Virus genome (UHGV): UHGV-0210560
Source: a virus
Reading direction: 5' to 3' (one strand)
Length of the DNA stretch: 34,455 bases
The notes beneath the pieces were generated by a model. The model saw only the letters and a program-made list of their open reading frames with translations. It searched no databases and was not told the DNA's origin. Of the stretch, positions 1,508 to 18,575 are shown piece by piece. How positions within the stretch are numbered: the stretch's first letter is position 1; each line of letters begins with the position of its first letter. A program made the position numbers and the translations under genes.

Positions 1508-1753
1508 ATGACGGCAGAGTACATCAAAAACAAGAAAATCATAAAAAGTGTATGCTCAAAATCCAAGCTCCGCGAGTATATCGCGGATTGCAATTTTGAG
1601 CACGAGCACGATGCGGAAATTTTGAGCATGATATACTTGCAAAATAAGGATTGCGGGTATGTCGCTGACATCATGGGGCTGTCGTATGACCAGACCCTTG
1701 AGCGCCACCGCAAAGCGGCGAAACGGCTTGCCGCCTTGATAAATGCCCCATAA
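1508..1753 (+). CDS. Small sigma-region-4-like HTH protein
   Basis: EILSMIYLQNKDCGYVADIMGLSYDQTLERHRKA pattern; AGGAG RBS. Confidence 0.6.
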   Translation: MTAEYIKNKKIIKSVCSKSKLREYIADCNFEHEHDAEILSMIYLQNKDCGYVADIMGLSYDQTLERHRKAAKRLAALINAP

Positions 1754-1786
1754 ATACCCCATAATCACCCCATAAACTCCCCATAA
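1746..1786 (+). repeat. Four CCCCATAA direct repeats at exact 11-bp spacing
   Basis: Copies start at 1746, 1757, 1768 and 1779. Confidence 0.85.
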
Positions 1787-1789
1787 CTG

Positions 1790-1837
1790 AGCCCCCTCCC
1801 TATGGTAACATAAAATTATAGAGAGGGGGCTTTTTTT
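1790..1837 (+). terminator. Terminator-like hairpin with a large loop containing a possible extended -10
   Basis: AGCCCCCTC...GAGGGGGCT followed by a T run; loop contains TGgTAACAT. Confidence 0.5.
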
Positions 1838-1839
1838 AT

Positions 1840-2223
1840 ATGTTTGAGCACGGATATACAGGCTATCCGGCAGGATACCAAAATCCATATATGAGCAGAT
1901 ACAACTCAGTGGCTGCGCAGCAAGCGCCTAAGTATGAGATAATCCGAGTCAATGGCGAAAACGGCGCGCAAGCGCTGCAGATGTCGCCAAACAGCGAAAT
2001 CATTGTCCTTGACAACACTGCTCCCATGGTGTGGCTGTGTCAGACGGATGGCGCAGGCTATAAGACGGTGCGACCCTTTGACATCGCACCGCATAAAGCA
2101 GCTCCGCAGATAGATCTTGCGGATATAGATGCAAGACTTAAAAGACTGGAGGAGATTTACGATGACAAATCCGATGTCGCAGTACCTAAAAAGCACATCA
2201 AAGTCACCGATGCCGAGCAATAA
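1840..2223 (+). CDS. Hypothetical protein, accessory cassette gene 1
   Basis: Y/P/Q-rich N-terminus, VNGENGA...DGAG motifs, short C-terminal coiled coil. Confidence 0.7.
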   Translation: MFEHGYTGYPAGYQNPYMSRYNSVAAQQAPKYEIIRVNGENGAQALQMSPNSEIIVLDNTAPMVWLCQTDGAGYKTVRPFDIAPHKAAPQIDLADIDARLKRLEEIYDDKSDVAVPKKHIKVTDAEQ

Positions 2224-2386
2224 TCCGATGCGAATGTTTTCCGAATTTCGGAAATTTGCGCAAGGCATGACTCCGCAGGATGCAAAGGCGGAGGTCGAGC
2301 GGCTGCTGCAAAGCGGACAGATGACGCAGCAGCAGTTTGAGCAGCTAAAGCAGCAAGCCGAAAGTTTTATAAAATTTTTGAAGTAA
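2162..2386 (+). CDS. Hypothetical protein, cassette gene 2
   Basis: GGAGG RBS, ATG at 2162; LLQSGQMTQQQFEQL motif. Confidence 0.7.
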   Translation: MTNPMSQYLKSTSKSPMPSNNPMRMFSEFRKFAQGMTPQDAKAEVERLLQSGQMTQQQFEQLKQQAESFIKFLK

Positions 2387-2437
2387 GGCGGGTGCACACG
2401 CTTTATATAAAAAATCAAAAGAAAGGACAGTAATGAA

Positions 2438-3022
2438 ATGGATATGCCTTTTTCCCTTTCCGATGTCGCGGCAGTGACCCGCGACGGAAATGATGGTGCT
2501 TTCGGCGGAAATGGCGCATGGTGGATCATCATCCTCTTCCTCTTCGTTTTCATGGGCGGCGGCTTATGGGGCAACCGCCAAGGCGACTATGGACAGTATG
2601 CGACCGCCGCCACCCAGCAGGAAATCCTCTACGGACAGCAGTTTGGTCAGCTTAATGACAGGCTGAATAGCATTGGCAACGGCATCTGCGACAGCACTTT
2701 TGCTCTTAACAACTCTATTACGAGCGAGGGCAGAGCGCTGCAAAGCCAGCTCGCCGAATGCTGCTGCGAAAATCGCCTTGCGACCGCCAACCTCGGGGCG
2801 CAGAGCGAAAAGCAGACCTGTGACATCATCAACGCAATTCACGCCGACGGCGAAGCCACAAGACAGCTCATCCAGACCAACGAGATCCAGTCGCTGCGTG
2901 ACAAGGTGAGTGCCTTGGAGATGGATAACCGCATGTACGGCGTAGTCCGCTACCCGATGGGCTACACCTACAGTGCAGGTGCATCTCCCTTCTGCTCCGG
3001 CTGTTGCAACGGCAACATCTAA
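2438..3022 (+). CDS. Gly-rich membrane/coiled-coil protein with Cys clusters, cassette gene 3
   Basis: GGNGAWWIIILFLFVFMGGG transmembrane segment; ECCCENR; C-terminal CSGCC. Confidence 0.75.
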   Translation: MDMPFSLSDVAAVTRDGNDGAFGGNGAWWIIILFLFVFMGGGLWGNRQGDYGQYATAATQQEILYGQQFGQLNDRLNSIGNGICDSTFALNNSITSEGRALQSQLAECCCENRLATANLGAQSEKQTCDIINAIHADGEATRQLIQTNEIQSLRDKVSALEMDNRMYGVVRYPMGYTYSAGASPFCSGCCNGNI

Positions 3023-3050
3023 CTTTACGCCCTTTTGGCGAGGCTGACGA

Positions 3051-3077
3051 GGGCGGCAGAAATGCCGCCCTATTTTG
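3051..3077 (+). terminator. Intercistronic stem-loop
   Basis: GGGCGGCA-gaaa-TGCCGCCC followed by tatttt. Confidence 0.5.
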
Positions 3078-3097
3078 TAATTTATCAGGAGGCATTT

Positions 3098-3493
3098 ATG
3101 AGCAAATCTATAATTTACACTACTAATGTGACCGCAAGCGCCGTCGCGGTCGGAGACCTTATTCCTCTCGGTAGCACCAGTCGCAGATACGGATGTAATC
3201 TCCGTCAGGACGGTAACGGGATCACCGCTACCGGCGCTGGGTACTACCTTGTCACGATGTCGGCGACCGTAGCTCCTACCGCCGCCGGAGCAGTGACTAT
3301 CACCGGTCAAAAAGACGGCGTCGCCATCATCGGCGCGACCGCCACCTCCACCGCCGCGGCTGGCGCTACTACCGACCTTGCTTTTTCCGCCGTCGTGCGC
3401 AACATCGGCTGTGACAGCTCCATCCTGTCTTTCGTGCTTACCGGCGCGGCTGCGACAGTAAGCAATTTTGCCGTCAGTGTAGTCAAGCTTTGA
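3098..3493 (+). CDS. Ala/Thr-rich beta-sandwich-like protein, cassette gene 4
   Basis: AGGAGG RBS, ATG at 3098; GYYLVTMSAT-type beta strands. Confidence 0.7.
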   Translation: MSKSIIYTTNVTASAVAVGDLIPLGSTSRRYGCNLRQDGNGITATGAGYYLVTMSATVAPTAAGAVTITGQKDGVAIIGATATSTAAAGATTDLAFSAVVRNIGCDSSILSFVLTGAAATVSNFAVSVVKL

Positions 3494-3503
3494 GGGTACA
3501 CCC

Positions 3504-3977
3504 ATGAAAACGGTGAAAAGCTACAAAAAGCGCCTCGGTGAGAGTATCGAAAAGTGTATGACAGAGTGGTCGATATCCGAGCGTACTGCCGCCGCCATAG
3601 ACCAGATGGTACAGTGCTGGCTGCATACGGATGATATGTGCAAGCACCTCTCCACGGCATCTTTTACGGCTGCAGACGCGGAAGCATGGGCGACAGGGCT
3701 TGTCAACGACGACGGCTCTGCCGGGGCACACTGGGACATGGCGCAGACCACCGCGGCAGCGGAAAATATCGGCGTAAAATTTGAGCATATCACCCGCGAA
3801 GAGTGGTATGCGGCGATGAACTCTATGTACTCCGACTACAGCCGCGTGGCGGACAAGTACGGCATCGGCACGGCGGACTTTTATGCCGACCTTGCAAAGG
3901 CTTTTCTCTTTGACAAGGATGCGCCGCCGCCGAAGCAAAAGCTTGCGGCATACTACCACTGCATAGTGGAGAGATAA
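3504..3977 (+). CDS. Hypothetical helical protein, cassette gene 5
   Basis: GAHW, AMNSMYSDY and AKAFLFDKD motifs; followed by a terminator. Confidence 0.7.
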   Translation: MKTVKSYKKRLGESIEKCMTEWSISERTAAAIDQMVQCWLHTDDMCKHLSTASFTAADAEAWATGLVNDDGSAGAHWDMAQTTAAAENIGVKFEHITREEWYAAMNSMYSDYSRVADKYGIGTADFYADLAKAFLFDKDAPPPKQKLAAYYHCIVER

Positions 3978-4011
3978 AAAAGAGCCCGGAAAACTCCGGG
4001 CTCTTTGCTTT
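3977..4011. terminator. Bidirectional terminator between convergent units
   Basis: AAAGAGCCCGGA-aaac-TCCGGGCTCTTT with A and T flanks. Confidence 0.8.
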
Positions 4012-4237
4012 AGTAAAGCTCAACGCCGAGCTTTTCGGCGGCAGCATAAACGACATTTTCAAAGTCTTCCCTGTCCTGCGCCGTTAAAAGCTCTTTGCTG
4101 CTTACGGCTTTCCACTCAGCGCTCATGCCTGCCAGCTCGCAAAGCTCGCCCTGCAAGTCAGGGTCGTAAAAAGGATTTGAGCAAATTTCCGCAGCGATTT
4201 CGCGGGCTCTTTTATTTATTTCCATTGTTCTTTTCAT
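4010..4237 (-). CDS. Small acidic protein (75 aa), candidate anti-CRISPR/anti-defence
   Basis: AAGGAG RBS, ATG at 4237; own strong promoter; adjacent to the HTH gene; function inferred from context only. Confidence 0.6.
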   Translation of the reverse strand: MKRTMEINKRAREIAAEICSNPFYDPDLQGELCELAGMSAEWKAVSSKELLTAQDREDFENVVYAAAEKLGVELY

Positions 4238-4245
4238 GATGTTTT

Positions 4246-4345
4246 CTCCTTTTGTCAATTTTTTGTGGATTGAATTTTGTACCCTCTTTGGAGTACATCT
4301 ATACTATACGCCTTTATTATCGTAATGTCAAGGGGTTTTTGCAAA
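4246..4345 (-). promoter_or_regulatory. Promoter/operator/leader copy 1
   Basis: Minus strand TTGACA (4331-4326), 17 bp, TATAGT (4308-4303); TACG-N10-CGTA palindrome; near-identical to 5306-5405. Confidence 0.85.
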
Positions 4346-4393
4346 TATTTTTGGATTTTTTGAAAAAAATTGCGGAAAGGGCGTCGTTAAAAA

Positions 4394-4655: not shown

Positions 4656-5297
4656 TTATTGCCATTCGGCGACGCTGTCGATGGTGATGCATCCGCCGAT
4701 TTGAGCGACACCGTCCTCGGAGCGGGGGAAAAACTGCCCAAAGCGGGGGTCGTACTCCTGGCGGCAGCGCACGATGCTTCCATCTCTGTGTATAACAAAC
4801 GATTTTGCAGGGGCATACTTATTGTGACCGGGAACTTTGATTTTTGCGGGCTGCTGATAGAGCCAAAGCACAGCGGCAAGGAGATTGTCGGCAGAAACGC
4901 CAAGCTTGTCAACGGCGAAATTAAACTGCATGCTGGCTTTGATTTTGTCCTCGGCGGGAGCTTCGGGCTCCTTGGCTGCTTCGGGGGCTTCAGGGGCTTC
5001 GACATCTGCGAGGAGGCTCTTAACGAGAGTTTCGGCGGCGTCTTTGAGGTCATCGCGAGTGGAGCAAACCTCGCCGGTGGCGACATCAACATAAGTTTTT
5101 GCACCCTTAAGTCTGTAGCCCTCGGCGTTGCTGATAAGCTCGCCGTTAAAGTGTGCGCTGCTGATGTTACCGGTCTTGTAGTAAGAGCACTCGAGCCCAA
5201 GCAGGGTAGCGTTGATGTAGAGACGGTCGTGGTCGCCCTTAGTCCAGCGGTTAAATCCGTTCTTTTCAAGTTTTGTAATTTGGTTGTCAGTAAGCAT
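4656..5297 (-). CDS. Two-domain hypothetical protein (213 aa), candidate anti-CRISPR/anti-defence
   Basis: AAGGAG RBS, ATG at 5297; EAPEAPEAAKEPEAPAE linker; lies directly upstream of the HTH gene in the same orientation. Confidence 0.6.
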   Translation of the reverse strand: MLTDNQITKLEKNGFNRWTKGDHDRLYINATLLGLECSYYKTGNISSAHFNGELISNAEGYRLKGAKTYVDVATGEVCSTRDDLKDAAETLVKSLLADVEAPEAPEAAKEPEAPAEDKIKASMQFNFAVDKLGVSADNLLAAVLWLYQQPAKIKVPGHNKYAPAKSFVIHRDGSIVRCRQEYDPRFGQFFPRSEDGVAQIGGCITIDSVAEWQ

Positions 5298-5305
5298 TTT
5301 TAGGT

Positions 5306-5405
5306 CTCCTTTTGTCATTTTTTTGTGGATTGAATTTTGTACCCTCTCTTAAGTACATTTATATTATACGCCTTTATTGTCGTAATGTCAAGAGGCTTTT
5401 GCAAA
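5306..5405 (-). promoter_or_regulatory. Promoter/operator/leader copy 2
   Basis: Minus strand TTGACA (5391-5386), 17 bp, TATAAT (5368-5363); palindrome TACGCCTTTATTGTCGTA at 5367-5384. Confidence 0.9.
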
Positions 5406-5430
5406 AAATCTAAAAAAATTTTCAAGAAAA

Positions 5431-5671
5431 ATAACACACTTTATAACACACTTTTATTGCGTGCATATGAAAAAATATTTTTCCTGAGTGGATTCTTTCC
5501 CATACAAACGGCTTTGTAAAGCCATTTGTGGAGTTATGCCGTTGGAGAAAATAGTAAATTTATTTTAGAACGTGGGTTCGAGTCCCTCCTTCTCCGCCAA
5601 AAGAAAATCGCTTGTTTAAGCCAAAAACAAGCGATTTTTATTTTTGAAATAACACACTTTATAACACACTT
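5431..5671 (+). mobile_element. attP: attP: tRNA 3'-end core flanked by arm-type direct repeats
   Basis: GGGTTCGAGTCCCTCCTTCTCCGCCA (5574-5599) matches a T-arm, acceptor strand and CCA, most like tRNA-Ser; ATAACACACTTTATAACACACTT at 5431-5453 and 5649-5671; hairpin at 5604-5638; abuts the integrase stop. Confidence 0.85.
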
Positions 5672-6743
5672 ATGGATTTATGATGTTTTTGAACGCATCG
5701 CCGATGATTTCGGCGGTGCGTTTTTCTTCGCCCGAGATGGCGTGGGCGTAAGTTTTATAGGTGTCCATGTCTTCGGAGTGCCCGACAAAAGGTTTTATGA
5801 CGCCTTCCGGCAAAATTTTTACGACGGAAACGAAAGTGTGGCGCAGCTCATAAGGTGTGACAACAGGAATACCGTTTTGTTTACAGTATCGGGCAAGCTT
5901 CTTTTTGTAATCGTCGCCGGAGGAAATTCCGAAAATAAATTCGTTTGTTGCCTCCGCCGAAAGCTGCTCTTCGAGGACGGCTTTTGCGATGTCGGATAAT
6001 GGCACGGCGCGCCGTGCGTTTTTGTTTTTGCCTTCGGTGATGTCTCCGTAGGCGTTGACAGCGCGGTGGATGCTCAAAACGCCGCCCTTATAATCGCAGG
6101 GCTTTAGCCCCATAAGCTCGCCAGGGCGAAGTCCGGTTAAGACCTGAAAGCGATATGCATTTATATATTTATCTTTTACAATTTTTCCTTGGAGCAAAGT
6201 TGTTTCGACTTGGAATAATTTTTGCAGGTCTTCAGGCTGAAGAATTGATTTTTCAGATTTTTTTGCAGCCGAAGGAATTACTAAGTCTTCCGGAACATAA
6301 GACGATAATTTTTGTTTGCGGCAATACTTTACAAAGCCTGTCAAATCTCCCCGAAGATTCATAAGAGTTTTTTTTGACAGCTTTTTGCGCTTAAAAGCCG
6401 TATCTATAACGCTTTGCAAGTCGGCATCGCAAAGCGAAGATACCGACCGAGCGCCTATAAGCGGAAAAACATAATTTCTGTATCGTCCCTCTACCGGACG
6501 ATAGTTACTGTACGATGTTGTAGCTTTGACTTTTTCGAGGTACTCCTCATACGCATCGCACACTTTGATCTTCTGATTTTCCACGCCCTCATCGAGCCAG
6601 AGGTCGGCCTTGCGATTTGCTTCCCGCTGCCCGGTGCGACCGGGCGTACCGGAGTAAAAGCTTTTACGTACGCCGTCTTTTTGCACATTGATTTGCCACC
6701 GCTGCTGTTTTTCCATCCATTTTGCAGTATTTGTTCGTTTCAT
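5670..6743 (-). CDS. int: Tyrosine integrase
   Basis: TGLRPGEL, K of EGKNK, YELRHTF, GHS and YAH catalytic motifs; AAGGAG RBS, ATG at 6743. Confidence 0.95.
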   Translation of the reverse strand: MKRTNTAKWMEKQQRWQINVQKDGVRKSFYSGTPGRTGQREANRKADLWLDEGVENQKIKVCDAYEEYLEKVKATTSYSNYRPVEGRYRNYVFPLIGARSVSSLCDADLQSVIDTAFKRKKLSKKTLMNLRGDLTGFVKYCRKQKLSSYVPEDLVIPSAAKKSEKSILQPEDLQKLFQVETTLLQGKIVKDKYINAYRFQVLTGLRPGELMGLKPCDYKGGVLSIHRAVNAYGDITEGKNKNARRAVPLSDIAKAVLEEQLSAEATNEFIFGISSGDDYKKKLARYCKQNGIPVVTPYELRHTFVSVVKILPEGVIKPFVGHSEDMDTYKTYAHAISGEEKRTAEIIGDAFKNIINP

Positions 6744-6843
6744 GCTTGTAATCTCCTTTAATTTTTTATATAATAAAAATATAGGGGCGAGTTTTAATCT
6801 CCCTCGCCCCTGCCCTCGGAGCTTTTCCCTCCGGGGGCTTTTT

Positions 6844-7611
6844 TTATTTACTTTCAAGCTGCTTTTCGAGCACTTCGAGGCGCTTTTGCGGCACTGCCGT
6901 CTCCAGAGCCTCACGCTCACGCTTTCCGGCGTTACGCACCTGCGCATAGCCCACAAAGCCAAAGACGATAGGCAACACCATGAAAAGCCCGAAGATTAAA
7001 AAAGTGCCCGCCATAAGGCAGTAGCCGATGGCGGCGGTCAGCAAAAGGCTTTTGACCTGCGTAAAGTAAGCCGACCATGCGATGGATACCACTATGACGC
7101 TTATAATTGCATGAGGCACTGCTATTGGAAAAGTCTTATATACTTCGTTTCCAGCAAAAAACACCAGTATAAAAAGTACATATATAGTGGCGATAATCGC
7201 TGCCGCCAAAGTAAAGCCGTTGCGGCGGATCTGCGCCGCGCACTCTTTTTCTTCCGCCGAAGCGGGCACAGTCGTCACCTTTTTTGCACCGCCGGAAATT
7301 GGTTTAAAAATAACAAATAACCCCACTATACTAAGCAAAAAGGACGGCGCCACATACAGCCCATAAGGATAAAAAGTAATCGCTGCCGCCCAGTACCCTA
7401 CGGTGGCAAGCACCGCGACGATCTCCGCGCCGGTGATGCCTGCCGCCCACCCGAAAGACAGCGCCGCCGCAGATACCGTCAGCTGCCATGATATGTACTG
7501 CATATGCTCATAGTCAAGATATATGCCGTTTTGCGTGCCGGACAGCACCAGCCACACATAAAATCCTGTGCACCAGAGAGCCGCCAGCAGCATGGGGAGG
7601 CGTTTTGCCAT
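6844..7611 (-). CDS. Multi-pass membrane protein (possible superinfection exclusion)
   Basis: About 8 hydrophobic segments in two similar halves; located in the lysogeny module. Confidence 0.65.
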   Translation of the reverse strand: MAKRLPMLLAALWCTGFYVWLVLSGTQNGIYLDYEHMQYISWQLTVSAAALSFGWAAGITGAEIVAVLATVGYWAAAITFYPYGLYVAPSFLLSIVGLFVIFKPISGGAKKVTTVPASAEEKECAAQIRRNGFTLAAAIIATIYVLFILVFFAGNEVYKTFPIAVPHAIISVIVVSIAWSAYFTQVKSLLLTAAIGYCLMAGTFLIFGLFMVLPIVFGFVGYAQVRNAGKREREALETAVPQKRLEVLEKQLESK

Positions 7612-7623
7612 AGATGCACCTCC

Positions 7624-7992
7624 TTAATGTCTTATCCATCCCACGCCGGGGAGGATTACATCTACTGCGATAAAAATTAAAAGGAACGCCATAACGGCGC
7701 AAGCGAAAATTAGGACGCGCTTAAACTGCCGGCGCTCGTGGGCTATGTCGTCCTGGCACTGCCGGATGAGCAGATCACGGTAGGACGGCAGATTCGGCGC
7801 AATGCCGACAATGGTATCCGCAGAGCCGCCGAGTGCTTTTATCATTGCGGTGGCCGCCGAAAATGACGGGTCGGGAGTGCTGCCGTTGATGATACGGATA
7901 ACGGTAGATTCCGGCACACCGGACTGCTCGGCTATTTGATGTGCGGTCAGCCCTTTTTCTTCCTTGAGCTTTTTCAGCTCGTCCGATAGCAT
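7624..7992 (-). CDS. XRE HTH protein with C-terminal transmembrane helix
   Basis: LKKLKEEKGLTAHQIAEQSGVPESTVIRIING; VLIFACAVMAFLLIFIAV. Confidence 0.8.
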   Translation of the reverse strand: MLSDELKKLKEEKGLTAHQIAEQSGVPESTVIRIINGSTPDPSFSAATAMIKALGGSADTIVGIAPNLPSYRDLLIRQCQDDIAHERRQFKRVLIFACAVMAFLLIFIAVDVILPGVGWIRH

Positions 7993-8268: not shown

Positions 8269-8643
8269 TCACTCTTTCGGAAGATAAGAGCGAACGACGG
8301 CTTCCAGCGCGTCAAGCTGCTCCGGTGAAAGGTGCTCCATATCCGCAAAAAGGCTTTGCACTTTCTTCGGCAGGCGATTAAAAAACGCAAGCAGCTTTAT
8401 ATCATCTTCGGAGAGCTCGCCGTTTTCGGCGGGCTTTTCTTTTATGTCCGTTTCGCCCCGCAGGTACTCCGGCGTGGTGCCGAGGATGTCCGCGATCTGC
8501 GCAAGGCGGTCGGCGGGGATTGACGAACGTCCGGCTTTTACATCTTTAAGGTATGTTCTTCTCAATCCAAGTTGAGTGCTTACAAAAGACAAACTTAATC
8601 CCTTTTCTTTTGCGATTTCTTCGATTCTGCCGATTTTGCACAT
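8269..8643 (-). CDS. CI-like immunity repressor
   Basis: N-terminal XRE HTH, IADILGTTPEYLRG; divergent from the early operon; GAAAGGAG RBS. Confidence 0.85.
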   Translation of the reverse strand: MCKIGRIEEIAKEKGLSLSFVSTQLGLRRTYLKDVKAGRSSIPADRLAQIADILGTTPEYLRGETDIKEKPAENGELSEDDIKLLAFFNRLPKKVQSLFADMEHLSPEQLDALEAVVRSYLPKE

Positions 8644-10319: not shown

Positions 10320-11126
10320 ATGAAAGGTTACAAAGCATTTGACAAGGGGCTTGTGTGCCGCGGGAAACAGTATGCGGAGAACACGGCCTTTGAGGAGGAC
10401 GAAGCGGTTATTTGCCAAAAGGGTATGCACTTTTGCGCAGAGCCGATGGATGTGTTTGATTATTACCCGCCGGAAAGCGAGTTCGCCGAGGTGGAAGCAC
10501 CGGACGAAGCAGCGACCGATGATAACAGAAAGTATGTGACGAAAAAGCTTAAAGTTGGGTCGAAGATGAGTTTGAAAGAGCTTATAAGCGCACAGGTCGA
10601 AATTGATTTTGCAAAGGCAAAAGAGGAAGGCAACGGCAGTTACGCACCGGGCTACTATGGTCACGCCGCCGCACCGGGCTACTATGGTCACGCCGCCGCA
10701 CAGGGCGACTATGGTCACGCCGCCGCAGAGGGTAACTGTGGTCACGCCGCCGCAGAGGGTAACTGTGGTCACGCCGCCGCACAGGGCTACTATGGTCACG
10801 CCGCCGCACAGGGCGACTATGGTCACGCCGCCGCACAGGGCGACTATGGTCACGCCGCCGCACAGGGCTACTATGGTCACGCCGCCGCACAGGGCTACAA
10901 GGGTCACGCCTCTGTGGGCGGCAAAGATGCGATTGCCGCCGCTTTTGGCATAGCGGGCAAAGCTAAAGCCTGCCTCGGCTCGTGGATAATGCTTGCCGAG
11001 TGGGTGCTTATGGGCGACGGCTGGCACATCAAGACCGTAAAAACCGCCAAAATCGACGGCGAAAAGCTTAAAGCGGACACTTGGTATATACTTAAAAACG
11101 GCGAGTTTGAGGAGGTAAAGGAATGA
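10320..11126 (+). CDS. Hypothetical phage protein with internal 9-aa repeats
   Basis: MKGYKAFDK...GMHFC N-terminal domain; (GxYGHAAAQ)x10; IDGEKLKADTWY C-terminus. Confidence 0.8.
   Translation: MKGYKAFDKGLVCRGKQYAENTAFEEDEAVICQKGMHFCAEPMDVFDYYPPESEFAEVEAPDEAATDDNRKYVTKKLKVGSKMSLKELISAQVEIDFAKAKEEGNGSYAPGYYGHAAAPGYYGHAAAQGDYGHAAAEGNCGHAAAEGNCGHAAAQGYYGHAAAQGDYGHAAAQGDYGHAAAQGYYGHAAAQGYKGHASVGGKDAIAAAFGIAGKAKACLGSWIMLAEWVLMGDGWHIKTVKTAKIDGEKLKADTWYILKNGEFEEVKE
10644..10910 (+). repeat. 27-bp coding tandem repeat, about 10 units
   Basis: Variants of GGCTACTATGGTCACGCCGCCGCACAG. Confidence 0.95.
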
Positions 11127-11767: not shown

Positions 11768-12004
11768 ATGTGTGACAGATGTAAAGGATGCATACACCGC
11801 CGGGCGTTGGCCGGAAAGTCCGCCGCAGTTTGCCAGTACGCCATAGACACCGGCAAACTGCGCGGCTGCGAGCCGGAGGACTGCCCGCACTGGAGCGGTG
11901 ACCAAAAAGAGCTCAAGCGTCTGATGCACGCAAGCGAGGAGCGGGATTTGTTTGCCGCTTTTTCCGACTTCGGCGAGGCGAAAGGGTCGCAGTGGTATGA
12001 TTGA
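11768..12004 (+). CDS. Cys-rich hypothetical protein
   Basis: CKGC...CQY...RGC...C; AAGGAGG RBS. Confidence 0.65.
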   Translation: MCDRCKGCIHRRALAGKSAAVCQYAIDTGKLRGCEPEDCPHWSGDQKELKRLMHASEERDLFAAFSDFGEAKGSQWYD

Positions 12005-12191
12005 GCGCTGCGAGGTATGCGGTAAGCCCATCCACGAGTGCAAAGGCGGCATCCTACGCTGCCGCCGATACTCCTGCGTGTGCGCAAAGTGCCATTTTAA
12101 TTGCCAATTTTATCGCGATGACGGGCTTTGTTATTGGTGGTGCGCATACCCCGAAAAAGATAAAAAAATCGCATCTCCTGATAGTAAATAA
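11997..12191 (+). CDS. Cys-rich Zn-finger protein
   Basis: CEVC...CRRYSCVCAKCHFNC; overlaps the upstream stop. Confidence 0.6.
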   Translation: MIERCEVCGKPIHECKGGILRCRRYSCVCAKCHFNCQFYRDDGLCYWWCAYPEKDKKIASPDSK

Positions 12192-12458
12192 TATATATAA
12201 TTTAGTAGTAGTAGTAGGCATTGTGGAAAACTTTTTTTATTACGCTCGTGTGGGAAAGATTTTTTTAATAACGATTTTGTCATTCCGGGGAAAAGAATAA
12301 AAGCTGTTTTTCGTGAAGTATTTCACAAATTCTATGTGGAAAACTTGGTGGAAAACTCGTTGAAAACTTGTGGAAAAGTTGAAAACTTAATTTCAGCCCA
12401 AAATTTAGGCTGTGGAAAAGTTGAAAACTATGTGGAAAACTCGTTGAAAAGTTGAAAA
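12186..12458 (-). other. Putative replication origin of bacterial oriC type
   Basis: TGTGGAAAA (= TTTTCCACA, fits TTWTNCACA) at 12222, 12335, 12369, 12411 and 12431, plus degenerate boxes; (TAG)5 at 12203-12217; AT-only tract at 12185-12204. Confidence 0.8.
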
Positions 12459-12776
12459 TTGGAGGTGGAAGAATTGGAAAATAGATGCTTTCTTTGCGGA
12501 GCGGACGGACGGCGCGATCCGCTCGATACGCATCACATTTTCGGCGGCGCGTACCGAAAGAAAAGCACCAAGTATGGGCTCACCGTAAAGCTGTGCCACT
12601 ATAAATGTCACATTTTTGGCGCGGAGGCGGTGCATAGCTGCCGCGCGACCATGGACAAGCTGCACAAATACGGTCAACGAAAAGCCATGCGCGAGCAGGG
12701 CTGGACAGTGGCGGATTTCCGCCGGGAGTTCGGCTGCAACTACTTGTGGGATGAGTTGGACGGACAGGAGGATTAG
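12459..12776 (+). CDS. HNH-like Zn-binding protein
   Basis: CFLCG...HHIFGG...KYGLTVKLCHYKCH. Confidence 0.7.
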   Translation: MEVEELENRCFLCGADGRRDPLDTHHIFGGAYRKKSTKYGLTVKLCHYKCHIFGAEAVHSCRATMDKLHKYGQRKAMREQGWTVADFRREFGCNYLWDELDGQED

Positions 12777-13600: not shown

Positions 13601-13872
13601 CAAATTTTGAGTATATAAGATCACTTGATGATAAAGGGTTGCGCGCCTTTTGGAATTTCGCCGCCAGCGGCGACGTGGACATCTTCTGCGAGACATGCAA
13701 TCTGTGCCGGTACGGCGGTGTAGATCGGTGTATGTCAGCGGCGAAGACCGGGCACGGAGAGGACGTATTGCGTGAGTGCAATAAGGCCAAATGGCGGTGG
13801 CTGCACGACGAGGCGCACGCCCTAAAAAAAGCCGTGGAGGAGGAGCTGCGCCATGAGAGCAAGAGCCTGTAA
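13597..13872 (+). CDS. Hypothetical protein
   Basis: AAGGAGG RBS, MTNFEYIRSL start; Cys motif. Confidence 0.65.
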   Translation: MTNFEYIRSLDDKGLRAFWNFAASGDVDIFCETCNLCRYGGVDRCMSAAKTGHGEDVLRECNKAKWRWLHDEAHALKKAVEEELRHESKSL

Positions 13873-14173
13873 TGGCGGCTTGACCGCTTCCGAAAGAAAA
13901 GCCATGCACAACGAGATAAAAAGGCAGCTTGCGGAGTATGACCGCAGACACGCGAAAGAGATAGATGCCATTGTCTTGTGGGTGCTGCGGGAGACCTTCG
14001 GCTTTGGCGAAAAGCGCCTACGCAAGTATTTTGACGAGTTTGGACGGCAACTCAATCGCCTTATAGAGTACTACAGTATGGGCGAGGACGACGAAGCGTG
14101 GCTTTGCAGCAGGAAACTAAAAGAGGCAGGCATAGACCTTGAAAAATGGGAGGCAGAAAAATGGGATATTTAA
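13853..14173 (+). CDS. Hypothetical phage protein
   Basis: LWVLRETFGFGEKRLRKY motif. Confidence 0.7.
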   Translation: MRARACNGGLTASERKAMHNEIKRQLAEYDRRHAKEIDAIVLWVLRETFGFGEKRLRKYFDEFGRQLNRLIEYYSMGEDDEAWLCSRKLKEAGIDLEKWEAEKWDI

Positions 14174-15374: not shown

Positions 15375-16553
15375 ATGAAAACAAAGAATCCAAAGCTGCG
15401 GGTGGAAACTGTGCCGGTAGATACCCTCCGACCATACGACAACAACGCCAAAATTCACACGCCGGAACAAATCGAGCAAATAAAAAAGTCCATCTTTGAG
15501 TTTGGCTTTAACGACCCTATCGCCATCGACGAGGACAACATGGTCATCGAGGGACACGGCAGGCTGCTTGCGGTAAAAGAACTCGGCTGGAAGGAAGTCG
15601 AAGCTATCCGGTTGCACAACCTGAGCGACGAGCAAAAGAGGGCGTACATTTTGGTGCATAACCAGCTCACTCTTAACACCGGCTTTGACCTTAATATGCT
15701 GCAAATCGAGCTCGCCAACATAACAGATTTAGACATGGGCGAGTTTGGATTTGAGTGGGAAAGCCACGAAACAGAGCGGAAAAGCGGCAGTCCTCATTTT
15801 TGGGGAGAAACCGAACTTGAAGACTCGGAAGAATACGACGAATTTTGCGAAAAATTTGTGCCTAAAAAGACGGCAGATGACTGCTATACTCCAGAGCCTG
15901 TGTATGAGGTCGTAAAAGAATGGGCGGTAAATAAATATAATTTGGGCGGCAAAAAAATAGTTCGTCCGTTTTATCCGGGCGGCGATTATGAAAACGAAAA
16001 CTATGATGGCGCGGTTGTTATTGACAACCCGCCGTTTTCGATTATTAGCAAAATTTGTGGATTTTATACTCAAAACAAAATAGATTTTTTCCTTTTTGCT
16101 CCGGGGCTGACTTTGTTCAGCACCTACGCAGGCAAAGCAAAATATGTAACAGGCACAAGTATAACCTACGAAAACGGAGCGGGAATTTTAACAGGCTTCG
16201 TTACCAACTTAGGAGAAAACAAAATAGAAATTGCGCCCGAGCTAATAGAAAGAATAGAAGAAGCCAACAAAATAGAAACGAAGCAAACAAAGAAAAAGGA
16301 TTACCCTAAAGAACTGATTACTCCCGCAATATACAAGTTAGCGAAAAGGGGTCAAGCGTTAAAAATAAAGCCGGAAGAAGCTTATTTTGTGCGAAAGCTT
16401 GAAAATCAAAGCGAAACCACTATTTATGGGGCAGGGTTTTTAATTTCAGAGCGAGCTGCCGCAGAGCGAGCTGCCGCAGAATCAGAAAATATCGAAAGAT
16501 TTGAATTGTCCGAAAAAGAAAAAGAAATTGTAAGGGGGTTAGGCAATGAGTGA
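15375..16553 (+). CDS. ParB-N domain fused to an adenine-methyltransferase-like domain
   Basis: PYDNNAKIH, FGFNDPI, IEGHGRLLA (ParB-like); DDCYTP and IDNPPFS (NPPF motif). Confidence 0.7.
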   Translation: MKTKNPKLRVETVPVDTLRPYDNNAKIHTPEQIEQIKKSIFEFGFNDPIAIDEDNMVIEGHGRLLAVKELGWKEVEAIRLHNLSDEQKRAYILVHNQLTLNTGFDLNMLQIELANITDLDMGEFGFEWESHETERKSGSPHFWGETELEDSEEYDEFCEKFVPKKTADDCYTPEPVYEVVKEWAVNKYNLGGKKIVRPFYPGGDYENENYDGAVVIDNPPFSIISKICGFYTQNKIDFFLFAPGLTLFSTYAGKAKYVTGTSITYENGAGILTGFVTNLGENKIEIAPELIERIEEANKIETKQTKKKDYPKELITPAIYKLAKRGQALKIKPEEAYFVRKLENQSETTIYGAGFLISERAAAERAAAESENIERFELSEKEKEIVRGLGNE

Positions 16554-16908
16554 TATAAAAAGCGTTAACCTTAACGAATTAGCCGAACAAATAATTGAAA
16601 TCGCAACTAAGTATGGGCTTGAACAAAATTTCTTTTTTCTTACAACTTTTAACCGCTACAAAATGCAGATTAAAATATTAAACGATTTACAGAAAACGAT
16701 TATAGAGGAGGGCAACCTTGTAACAAAGGAGTACGTCAAGGGCAGGCAAAACGTATATACTCATCCGGCGATAAGCGAGTACAACAAGACGAGCACCGCG
16801 GCAAATCAGACGGTGCAGACCCTTATAAAAATAATTACTACTTTGCGGGCGGATGCCGACGGCGAGGAAGAGGACGAGCTGATGGCATTTTTCCGCGGGC
16901 ATAAATGA
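16546..16908 (+). CDS. terS: Terminase small subunit (P27-like)
   Basis: EYVKGRQNVYTHPAISEYNK; overlaps the terL start. Confidence 0.8.
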   Translation: MSDIKSVNLNELAEQIIEIATKYGLEQNFFFLTTFNRYKMQIKILNDLQKTIIEEGNLVTKEYVKGRQNVYTHPAISEYNKTSTAANQTVQTLIKIITTLRADADGEEEDELMAFFRGHK

Positions 16909-18575
16909 GATCAGCCAGCGGCGCCGGAAAGAACTACATACGCTTATACTACAGACAAATCCAAAGCGGCAAAGCAGTGGTCGGAAAGTGGATAAAGCTG
17001 CTCTATGAGTACCTCATAAACGGATTAAAAAAACGAAAATTTTACTACGATGCAGGTAAAGCCGAGCGAGCAGTTGATTTTGTAGAAAGCTTTTGCCACC
17101 ACTCGGAAGGACGCGAAGACTTAATAACCCTTGAACTTTGGCAAAAAGCCGCACTCGCCGCCATCTTCGGAATCGTCGACAAAAAAGGCATACGAATTTT
17201 TCGCGAGGTTTTTATGGTGGTCGCAAGAAAAAACGGTAAAACGCTTTTTTGCTCTGCGATTATCGCATACGTGAATTTTTGCGATGGAGAGTATGGCTCC
17301 GCAACATACTGCCTTGCACCAAAGCTTGAACAAGCATACAAAGTTTATGACGGTTTTTATCAGATGCTTGTAAAATCGCCGCCGCTGATGAAATATTGCA
17401 AAAAGCGGCGCAGCGATGTATACCTCGAAGCAACAAACAGTAGCGTTAAACCAATAGCATTTAACGCAAAAAAAAGCGATGGTTTCAACCCTCATTTGAC
17501 TATTTGCGACGAGATTGCAAGCTGGCCTGCGGTACAAGGCAACAAGCAATACGAAGTCATGAAATCCGCACTCGGCGCACGAAAGCAACCGCTTATAATC
17601 TCAATATCGACAGCCGGATACATAGACGACGGTCCGTATGACGACCTCATGAAGCGGTCAACGGCTTTTTTGCTTGGCAACAGCGAAGAAAAAAGGCTGC
17701 TGCCATTTTTGTACATCATTGATGATGTTGACAAGTGGGACGACATCGAGGAGCTAAAAAAGAGCAACCCAAACCTCAATGTCTCTGTCAAAGACGAATA
17801 TTATCAAGAAGAAATCGCCGTCGCCAAAAACAGCCTCAGCAAAAAGGCGGAGTTTTTGACAAAGTACTGCAACATCAAGCAAAACGCTTCCGTGGCGTGG
17901 ATGCGCTACGAAGATATAAACGCGGTGTGTGGCGACAGCACAAAACTGGAGGATTTCCGCGACTGCTACTGCGTGGGAGGTATAGACCTTTCGCAGACGA
18001 CAGACCTCACCGCGTGCAGCATAGTGATAGAGCGAGCGTGTGTATTGCACACATTCACTCGCTTTTTTATGCCGAAAAACCGAATCGCCGCACTTCAAGA
18101 GCGCGAAGGCGTACCGTATGACATATATGTTCAGCAAGGATTTATCACGCCATCAGGTGAAAACTATGTTGATTATATGGACTGCTACAACTGGTTTGTT
18201 TCGCTCGTCAATGATTATCAGATATACCCTTTACAGGTCGGCTATGACCGATACTCGGCACAGTACCTTGTCAAAGACATGGAGGCGTTCGGCTTCCACA
18301 TGGATGACGTTTTTCAGGGCGAAAACCTTACGCCTGTCATCCGCGAAGCGGAGGGCTTGATTTTGGACAAAAAGCTTCAGCTCGGGACAAATAACCTGTT
18401 GAAAGCGCATTTCTTGAATGTGGCTATGAAGCAAAATGCCGAAACGCGAAAAATTCGCCCGATTAAAATCGAGGAACGCTGCCACATAGATGGATTTGTG
18501 TCTGTCATTGATGCACTGACCGTCCGGCAAAAGTGGTACGACCAAATAGGCGAGCAATTAAAAAACGAGGATTAA
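16905..18575 (+). CDS. terL: Terminase large subunit
   Basis: VARKNGKT (Walker A), ICDE (Walker B), ISTAG, GGIDLS, YDRY, HIDG. Confidence 0.95.
   Translation: MRSASGAGKNYIRLYYRQIQSGKAVVGKWIKLLYEYLINGLKKRKFYYDAGKAERAVDFVESFCHHSEGREDLITLELWQKAALAAIFGIVDKKGIRIFREVFMVVARKNGKTLFCSAIIAYVNFCDGEYGSATYCLAPKLEQAYKVYDGFYQMLVKSPPLMKYCKKRRSDVYLEATNSSVKPIAFNAKKSDGFNPHLTICDEIASWPAVQGNKQYEVMKSALGARKQPLIISISTAGYIDDGPYDDLMKRSTAFLLGNSEEKRLLPFLYIIDDVDKWDDIEELKKSNPNLNVSVKDEYYQEEIAVAKNSLSKKAEFLTKYCNIKQNASVAWMRYEDINAVCGDSTKLEDFRDCYCVGGIDLSQTTDLTACSIVIERACVLHTFTRFFMPKNRIAALQEREGVPYDIYVQQGFITPSGENYVDYMDCYNWFVSLVNDYQIYPLQVGYDRYSAQYLVKDMEAFGFHMDDVFQGENLTPVIREAEGLILDKKLQLGTNNLLKAHFLNVAMKQNAETRKIRPIKIEERCHIDGFVSVIDALTVRQKWYDQIGEQLKNED

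Follow-up and report, generated by a model that had tools for sequence, protein, structure and literature searches.

A temperate gut phage without detectable replication genes carries an element laid out like a bacterial chromosome origin

We describe a temperate gut phage in which no replication gene could be detected and which, judged by its sequence, carries an element that copies the layout of a bacterial oriC. The stretch of DNA analysed here (UHGV virus genome UHGV-0210560, 34,455 nucleotides; hereafter, the window) holds this element in the gap 12192-12473, between the end of a small cysteine-rich ORF (12191) and the start of an HNH-like gene (12474). By analogy with Bacillus subtilis, the element is probably a phage replication origin that would be opened by host DnaA, with host proteins then replicating the excised circle.

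Read along the minus strand, the element comprises a distal box array, a degenerate box, a proximal DnaA box, a 4-bp spacer, five DnaA-trios and an AT-rich tract (Table 1). The succession of box, spacer, five trinucleotide repeats and AT tract, running from 12230 to 12187, is as a preliminary description of this DNA had read it. That description had also counted four more perfect, co-oriented boxes. Four further copies of TTTTCCACA, starting at 12335, 12369, 12411 and 12431 and all on the minus strand, are indeed perfect with respect to the TTWTNCACA consensus that the exact boxes fit; measured against the highest-affinity sequence TTATCCACA, each is one mismatch off. The degenerate boxes said to lie beside the exact ones are also present; altogether, 12 co-oriented 9-mers have at most one mismatch to TTTTCCACA, TTATCCACA or TTTTCAACA. 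Absent is a partner box 8-9 bp upstream of the proximal box, where the window shows 6 mismatches, as do the four relatives sharing this junction. The DnaA-type box is the strongest repeat family in the gap, and no separate iteron stands out.

Table 1. Features of the window discussed in the text, with their positions and strands
Feature	Position	Strand	Remarks
attP-like core	5571..5607	+	matches 3' end of tRNA-Ser genes
Tyrosine integrase	5670..6962	-	Pfam/PHROGs; start codon uncertain
Two HTH_3 repressor-like genes	7624-7992, 8269-8643	-	Pfam/PHROGs
Cys-rich 64-aa ORF	11997..12191	+	no family; swapped out in diverged relative
AT-rich tract	12187..12202	-	least stable DNA; predicted melting and helicase-loading region
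Five consensus DnaA-trios, (CTA)x5	12203..12217	-	+ strand reads TAG x5, i.e. 3'-GAT-5'
Spacer ATGC, 4 bp	12218..12221	-	half G+C
Proximal DnaA box TTTTCCACA	12222..12230	-	no tandem partner
Degenerate box TTTCCCACA	12249..12257	-	27 bp upstream of proximal box
Distal array, ten co-oriented boxes	12335..12458	-	TTTTCCACA, TTTTCCACC, TTTTCAAC[T/G]; 8-, 11- and 12-bp steps
HNH-like protein, phrog_7566	12474..12776	+	TTG start at 12474 after GGAGG
Terminase large subunit	16905..18575	+	query for packaging relatives

Chance was assessed with 300 dinucleotide shuffles of the window. Neither five co-oriented boxes in 220 bp (0/300; maximum 2) nor the 15-nt trio run (0/300) was seen in any of them, which excludes a chance origin of the element; the loose 'box + 4 NAN' pattern by itself turned up in 23/300. 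Across the 34.5 kb, the AT tract ranks first as the least stable DNA at 20, 30 and 40 bp, and second at 60 bp. Other features are inconspicuous at this site: a promoter search returned a single weak promoter-like match, at chance level, the single-stranded DNA has no marked hairpin (z = 0.09), and an Rfam search yielded no match. GC skew, which the preliminary description had proposed as a check, shows no switch at the element (fourfold-site skew +0.10 to the left, +0.02 to the right), a weak test in phages.

In cellular genomes, the pattern is an oriC signature. A GTDB search with TTTTCCACA-N(3-8)-CTACTACTACTA gave at least 118 loci, 80 of them with flanks. Among the matches listed, a dnaA or dnaN homologue was present within 1.5 kb in 71 of the 80 flanked loci, co-oriented with the pattern in 70 of those 71 (the eight dnaA/dnaN query proteins were confirmed by Pfam). 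None of the 37 viral matches was near dnaA or dnaN, and homology and profile searches of the window revealed neither a DnaA or DnaN match nor a remnant, phage genes lying on either side of the element. No integrated copy in a host chromosome was found among the three loci looked at, out of 9 GTDB matches away from dnaA/dnaN; two of these (L116, L140) have a junction sequence common to the L005/L032 phage, and the third (L098) lies by gidB.

The preliminary description had equated the layout with the basal unwinding system (BUS) of the B. subtilis oriC. In the available part of a BUS survey, which covered primary chromosomes, the search rule is a box with up to 2 mismatches to TTATCCACA, a spacer of up to 16 bp and at least 3 NAN trios of consensus 3'-GAT-5'; a tandem box pair is the commonest form (57%), single-box forms are allowed, and the 'GC-rich' gap between box and trios averages 4 bp (PMC8287927). 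The window has a box with 1 mismatch to TTATCCACA, followed after 4 bp by five consensus trios, and lacks the tandem pair (6 mismatches at -8/-9). For B. subtilis itself, the accessible sections of two studies state that distal and proximal subregions are both needed, the distal region having worked 132-462 bp away (PMC6669920), and that no element is more critical than the upstream partner box (PMC10721633). Compared with this incC-type arrangement, the window has the same polarity, AT-rich, easily melted DNA adjoining the trios and a separate distal box region ~110-230 bp upstream (the ten boxes at 12335-12458), but differs in its phage setting, in not lying beside dnaA/dnaN as a chromosomal oriC does, in its single proximal box and in its TTTT-type box variants. 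The equation thus holds for box, spacer, trios, AT tract and distal boxes, and fails for the upstream partner box.

Chromosomal origins vary at this very position: among the matches listed, a partner box with at most 2 mismatches accompanies 47 of the 71, and 10 of the 71 have 5 or more mismatches, like the window. The dnaA-dnaN origins of Clostridia (for example L124 from Ruminococcus, L127, L143, L149 and L172) share with the window a near-identical box-spacer-trio-AT core as well as the box variants TTTTCCAC and TTTTCAAC, but mostly have the tandem box that the window lacks. Across 30 dnaN-upstream regions of one Clostridia order, TTTTCCAC occurs 22 times, TTTTCAAC 21 times, TTATCCAC 12 times and TTATCAAC 10 times; the window has TTTTCCAC 6 times and TTTTCAAC 5 times, i.e. 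the two variants that dominate the Clostridia regions.

Pfam and PHROGs scans of its ORFs show the window to be the genome of a temperate, siphovirus-like phage, which opens with genes for holin and amidase. These are followed by the integrase, two HTH repressor-like genes, an antirepressor and small early ORFs, more than ten of which have no assigned function, and then by a structural block of terminase, portal, protease, capsid and tail genes. The attP-like core matches tRNA 3' ends of Clostridia, at best with 95% over 37 nt, and the four best loci are tRNA-Ser genes. It is flanked by phage genes on either side in the window and in two relatives (L297 and L300), an arrangement that fits an excised genome. 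Judged by terminase, Butyrivibrio phages Arawn and Idris and phage nd12 come closest among named phages (62-64% identity); judged by integrase, Faecalibacterium phage FP_Lugh does (42%). While a search of 399 Clostridia genomes for the host returned just the tRNA-end and weak short matches, we infer from these tRNA ends and from the nearest named phages that the host belongs to the gut Clostridia.

Several other regions of the window deserve brief mention. Within 5300-5700, a ATAACACACTT motif is repeated on either side of the att core, possibly as integrase arm sites, and a ~100-bp sequence is duplicated upstream of two leftward ORFs (3970-4390 and 5300-5700). An accessory block after the lysin (1508-3977) encodes phrog_21718, phrog_22984, phrog_16490, a BclA_C-like protein and DUF7841, two families of which are also found near a BUS in another locus (L312). 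A DUF7666 protein with 9-residue tandem repeats (10320-11126) is swapped or missing in close relatives, and ORF 4659-5297(-) has no match in PHROGs or Atlas. Immediately before the terminase genes, ORF 15375-16553 fuses a ParB-N domain to an NPPF-motif region; the motif, in the C-terminal half, is possibly adenine-methyltransferase-like. We rejected this ORF as a replication or partition gene in view of its C-terminal NPPF; its single-sequence model (pLDDT 33) was unusable.

The preliminary description had recognised no initiator, helicase, loader, primase or SSB, and all searches agree. With 65 ORFs run against Pfam and PHROGs, no initiator, loader, helicase, primase, SSB or annealing protein was detected; 30 ORFs against NCBIfam, and 13 more ORFs from the window or its relatives against PHROGs, gave no replication family. 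A set of 20 local profiles, representing initiators, DnaC, helicases, primase, SSBs, annealing proteins, HUH Reps, DnaA and DnaN (10 of the 20 built from five or fewer sequences), was compared with all 765 six-frame stop-free segments of at least 25 aa in the window, with a best E of 0.2, and with the window plus 978 segments of relatives, where none was better than E 0.17. This search for cryptic initiators, another of the checks suggested earlier, leaves the phage without one by profile. Similarly, profiles of the Arawn-type Rep (29 sequences) and of VP4 (31 sequences) had no match in the window, which thus yields no HUH Rep; the same profile recipe recovered the Rep of phage nd12, which tblastn had missed. 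Nor did Pfam, PHROGs, NCBIfam or the local profiles reveal a lambdoid or iteron-type phage initiator with cognate iterons in the window.

These results bear on the alternative that a cryptic, small early phage initiator recognises the origin, DnaA merely aiding melting or helicase loading in the style of iteron plasmids. A number of conserved ORFs, 60-110 aa long, have no assigned function, another factor could stand in for the missing partner box, and iteron plasmids do use a Rep together with host DnaA, as the available text has it (PMC6312765). We nevertheless consider such an initiator unlikely, given that no profile matched in the window and that the strongest repeat in the gap is a DnaA-type box rather than a distinct iteron. 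The best candidate, ORF 13853-14173 (phrog_17690), is modelled as a small, all-helical protein (pLDDT 81) with no PDB match, its Atlas matches being hypothetical phage clusters only; with a box cluster at 0/82 loci of its family, it was rejected as an origin helper. A homologue of this ORF lies beside the module in L312.

What relatives carry at the corresponding position was assessed for the best 80 terminase relatives (63-74% identity), of which 34 with at least 8.7 kb upstream were counted and 46 were too short. An initiator is present in all 34, namely an Arawn-type HUH Rep (PF23343) in 33 and a DnaD/O-like protein with helicase in one, and none has at least 4 boxes in 300 bp. The HNH-like gene offers a second vantage point, its usual place in other phages being inside a recombination/replication module: in a PHROGs scan of 15 of its loci, annealing, NinB, SSB, initiator or loader genes were nearby in 8. 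Among 57 HNH-gene loci, 45 have an initiator, DnaC or helicase match, none has a box cluster, and 12 have neither within ~6 kb. Both sets hold many near-duplicates, and most terminase relatives fall into few close groups, so these counts overstate independence. They nonetheless place the element in the replication slot, where it alternates with a Rep gene, in line with the earlier remark that it sits where replication genes normally are. The named phages illustrate this: Arawn and nd12, despite their similar terminases, have their own PF23343-type Rep and no cluster, and FP_Lugh has helicase and primase and no cluster. As a side observation, the PF23343 Rep of tailed Arawn-like phages (L442:27598-28356; L216-L293) belongs to a Pfam family shared with gokushovirus VP4 (33/34 loci). 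For the HNH-like protein itself, a profile search pointed weakly to an IscB chain (E=0.06).

A metagenome scan produced five matches to the window, four of which are close relatives (93-95% identical over 3.8-5.4 kb), the fifth matching 30 bp. When the window and these four are aligned, 0 of 45 columns vary in 12186-12230, compared with 16 of 124 in the distal array and 6-40% in the 11 flanking ORFs; two relatives (L297 and L300) do not differ from each other within the element, so that there are at most four independent sequences. The five trios are invariant in all four relatives, and the degenerate box TTTCCCACA is kept in 4/4. Array units TTTTCAACG become TTTTCCACA in L297 and L300, changes which suggest that one protein uses both as sites. 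In a diverged contig, the upstream ORF is swapped, with 160 different letters between 12022 and 12191, and the alignment of a second diverged contig to the window starts at 12191. By these two breakpoints, the conserved unit begins at the AT tract; the Cys-rich ORF, being replaced in the diverged relative, is probably no part of the origin system. The core is thus kept while neighbouring genes are exchanged, the variable early regions of relatives holding a PAPS reductase, a methyltransferase, a Lar-like protein or unknown ORFs.

Such conservation is difficult to reconcile with a relic, that is, a fragment of the host oriC picked up by a prophage that is now defective, its replication module gone. 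While the core does closely resemble Clostridia oriC, the window has no dnaA or dnaN remnants, and in the window as well as in L297 and L300 the att site is internal to the contig, which fits an excised genome. A repeat that arose by chance is excluded by the shuffles. An 83-codon stop-free frame spans the boxes, as a peptide-coding repeat would require; however, 1-bp indels at 12246-12286 fall inside this frame in diverged relatives. In-frame stops lie immediately upstream, no NCBIfam match comes near the cut-off, and we regard the gap 12192-12473 as non-coding. A relic, or else a chance or peptide-coding repeat, therefore strikes us as very improbable.

The same alignment speaks to the possibility that the element is a sink for DnaA or has a regulatory role, acting like datA or as a decoy origin to damp host initiation or to control phage transcription, the phage DNA being copied otherwise, by a helper phage or in a recombination-dependent manner. 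According to the available part of one source, a datA-like locus is defined by DnaA titration or DnaA-ATP hydrolysis (PMC5835720). Twelve boxes would be predicted to bind DnaA regardless, and five perfect CTA units are rare, being found in 2 of the 30 dnaN-upstream regions of one Clostridia order (the exact pattern in 1 of 251 genomes), so the site could out-compete oriC. Moreover, the ribosome-binding site of the HNH-like gene directly adjoins the array, and the accessible text on lambda describes transcriptional control by DnaA (PMC7466680). Yet the invariant part of the element is its trio/AT core and not its array, no alternative replication gene was found, and the one promoter-like match is no better than chance, leaving a sink or regulatory site doubtful.

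The module is not confined to this phage. An IMG/VR scan yielded 35 loci, 26 of which encode microvirus capsid and Rep homologues and are thus gokushovirus-like; in 26/26 of these, as in the window, TAG is read on the gene-sense strand, and the best GenBank matches of the element are gokushovirus intergenic regions. In the gokushovirus-like loci (26 loci in L001-L034, and L093, KT264798), a box array, usually a tandem box, trios and an AT tract lie by the end of VP4. Three complete phages of 37.5-40.6 kb from one other lineage (G406, G407 and G409; L318-L324) have a single-box BUS; searches of them gave no initiator, helicase, primase or SSB match, and RecT is present. They also carry an exonuclease and GroEL, as well as a reverse transcriptase in G406. 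The TTATCCACA version of the pattern was seen in four more phage loci. In one of these four (G410, L315:10001), a tandem-box BUS is separated by ~5.4 kb from genes for an O/DnaD-like initiator and a DnaB helicase. This initiator, together with the gokushovirus Reps, implies that the module can be accessory, and its occurrence beside initiators means that its presence is no proof of a sole origin. Both cases count in favour of a cryptic initiator in our phage, and they are the main reason why we do not place higher confidence in the proposed mechanism. Two matches in Subdoligranulum plasmids were rejected as module carriers, having boxes only and no trios.

How might an origin opened by host DnaA work? 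By analogy with B. subtilis, the distal array would concentrate DnaA-ATP, DnaA at the proximal box would extend a filament onto the TAG strand, and duplex opening would proceed into the AT tract, whereupon host loaders, helicase, primase and polymerase would copy the excised circle in theta mode. More speculatively, concatemers for packaging might be formed through recombination by the host, possibly aided by the adjacent HNH-like protein, and in the lysogen the origin may be repressed or merely tolerated. Since firing of a DnaA origin is normally limited to one round per cell cycle, a lytic burst is not easily explained by such an origin. The strand opposite the trios has the TnnT spacing that DnaD of B. 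subtilis recognises, as stated in the available text (PMC10201434); this spacing follows from the trios and so lends no independent support. The preliminary description had held that a prophage origin would need silencing. This is not forced: according to the accessible text, E. coli strains engineered to keep two or three origins active have been analysed and show replication conflicts (PMC6116050), which makes silencing possible and not required.

We lean, by a narrow measure, towards a broader reading in which the phage would be a pure oriC replicon, with no replication protein of its own and a 290-bp idealised host origin replacing the Rep of its relatives. It would then be one of a wider guild of gut phages exploiting DnaA, with members in other tailed lineages and in a clade of gokushoviruses, and a second chromosome-type origin would be present in its lysogen.

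To our knowledge, known phage replication modules centre on a phage-encoded initiator, primase/helicase or polymerase; a review of such modules is reportedly due to Weigel and Seitz. A literature search with coverage outside most subscription journals gave no description of a DnaA-trio origin in a phage, and nothing on Microviridae together with a DnaA box. We regard the BUS-type origin, on present alignments, as real and conserved, and its phage setting as new. The closest precedents, judging from the available parts of their descriptions, each differ in a telling way. Minichromosomes on oriC and lambda-asn phages with oriC likewise are extrachromosomal circles on an oriC-type origin, but are laboratory constructs, as opposed to a natural phage lineage (PMC5835720). 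Iteron plasmids RK2 and R6K (PMC6312765) and lambdoid O/P origins (PMC7466680) also involve host DnaA in replication or its control, but need their own Rep or O and iterons, none of which was found in the window. Pelagiphages of the HTVC010P type share the lack of a DNA polymerase and a proposed link to DnaA, but encode a DnaA DNA-binding domain, and the accessible text describes no BUS origin in them (PMC8477408). For a Streptococcus mutans phage with replication genes, the available text gives an Ori-Finder call of two DnaA boxes (PMC10713843).

If the proposed mechanism is true, sole reliance on host DnaA would be a different phage replication strategy, which would explain some phage genomes without replication genes and tie phage replication to host initiation control. 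It would also raise the questions of how an origin limited to one firing per cycle could sustain a lytic burst, and how the lysogen copes with having a second oriC. As a natural single-box, perfect-trio variant, the element would probe the minimal needs of the unwinding module. Two observations from cellular genomes may be added. BUS-like sites occur in Ktedonobacteria/Chloroflexia (L106, L147 and L165) with no dnaA/dnaN match in the flanks searched, and one Blastocatellia contig (L139 and L177) carries two BUS-like copies 70 kb apart, one alone of which lies beside dnaA/dnaN.
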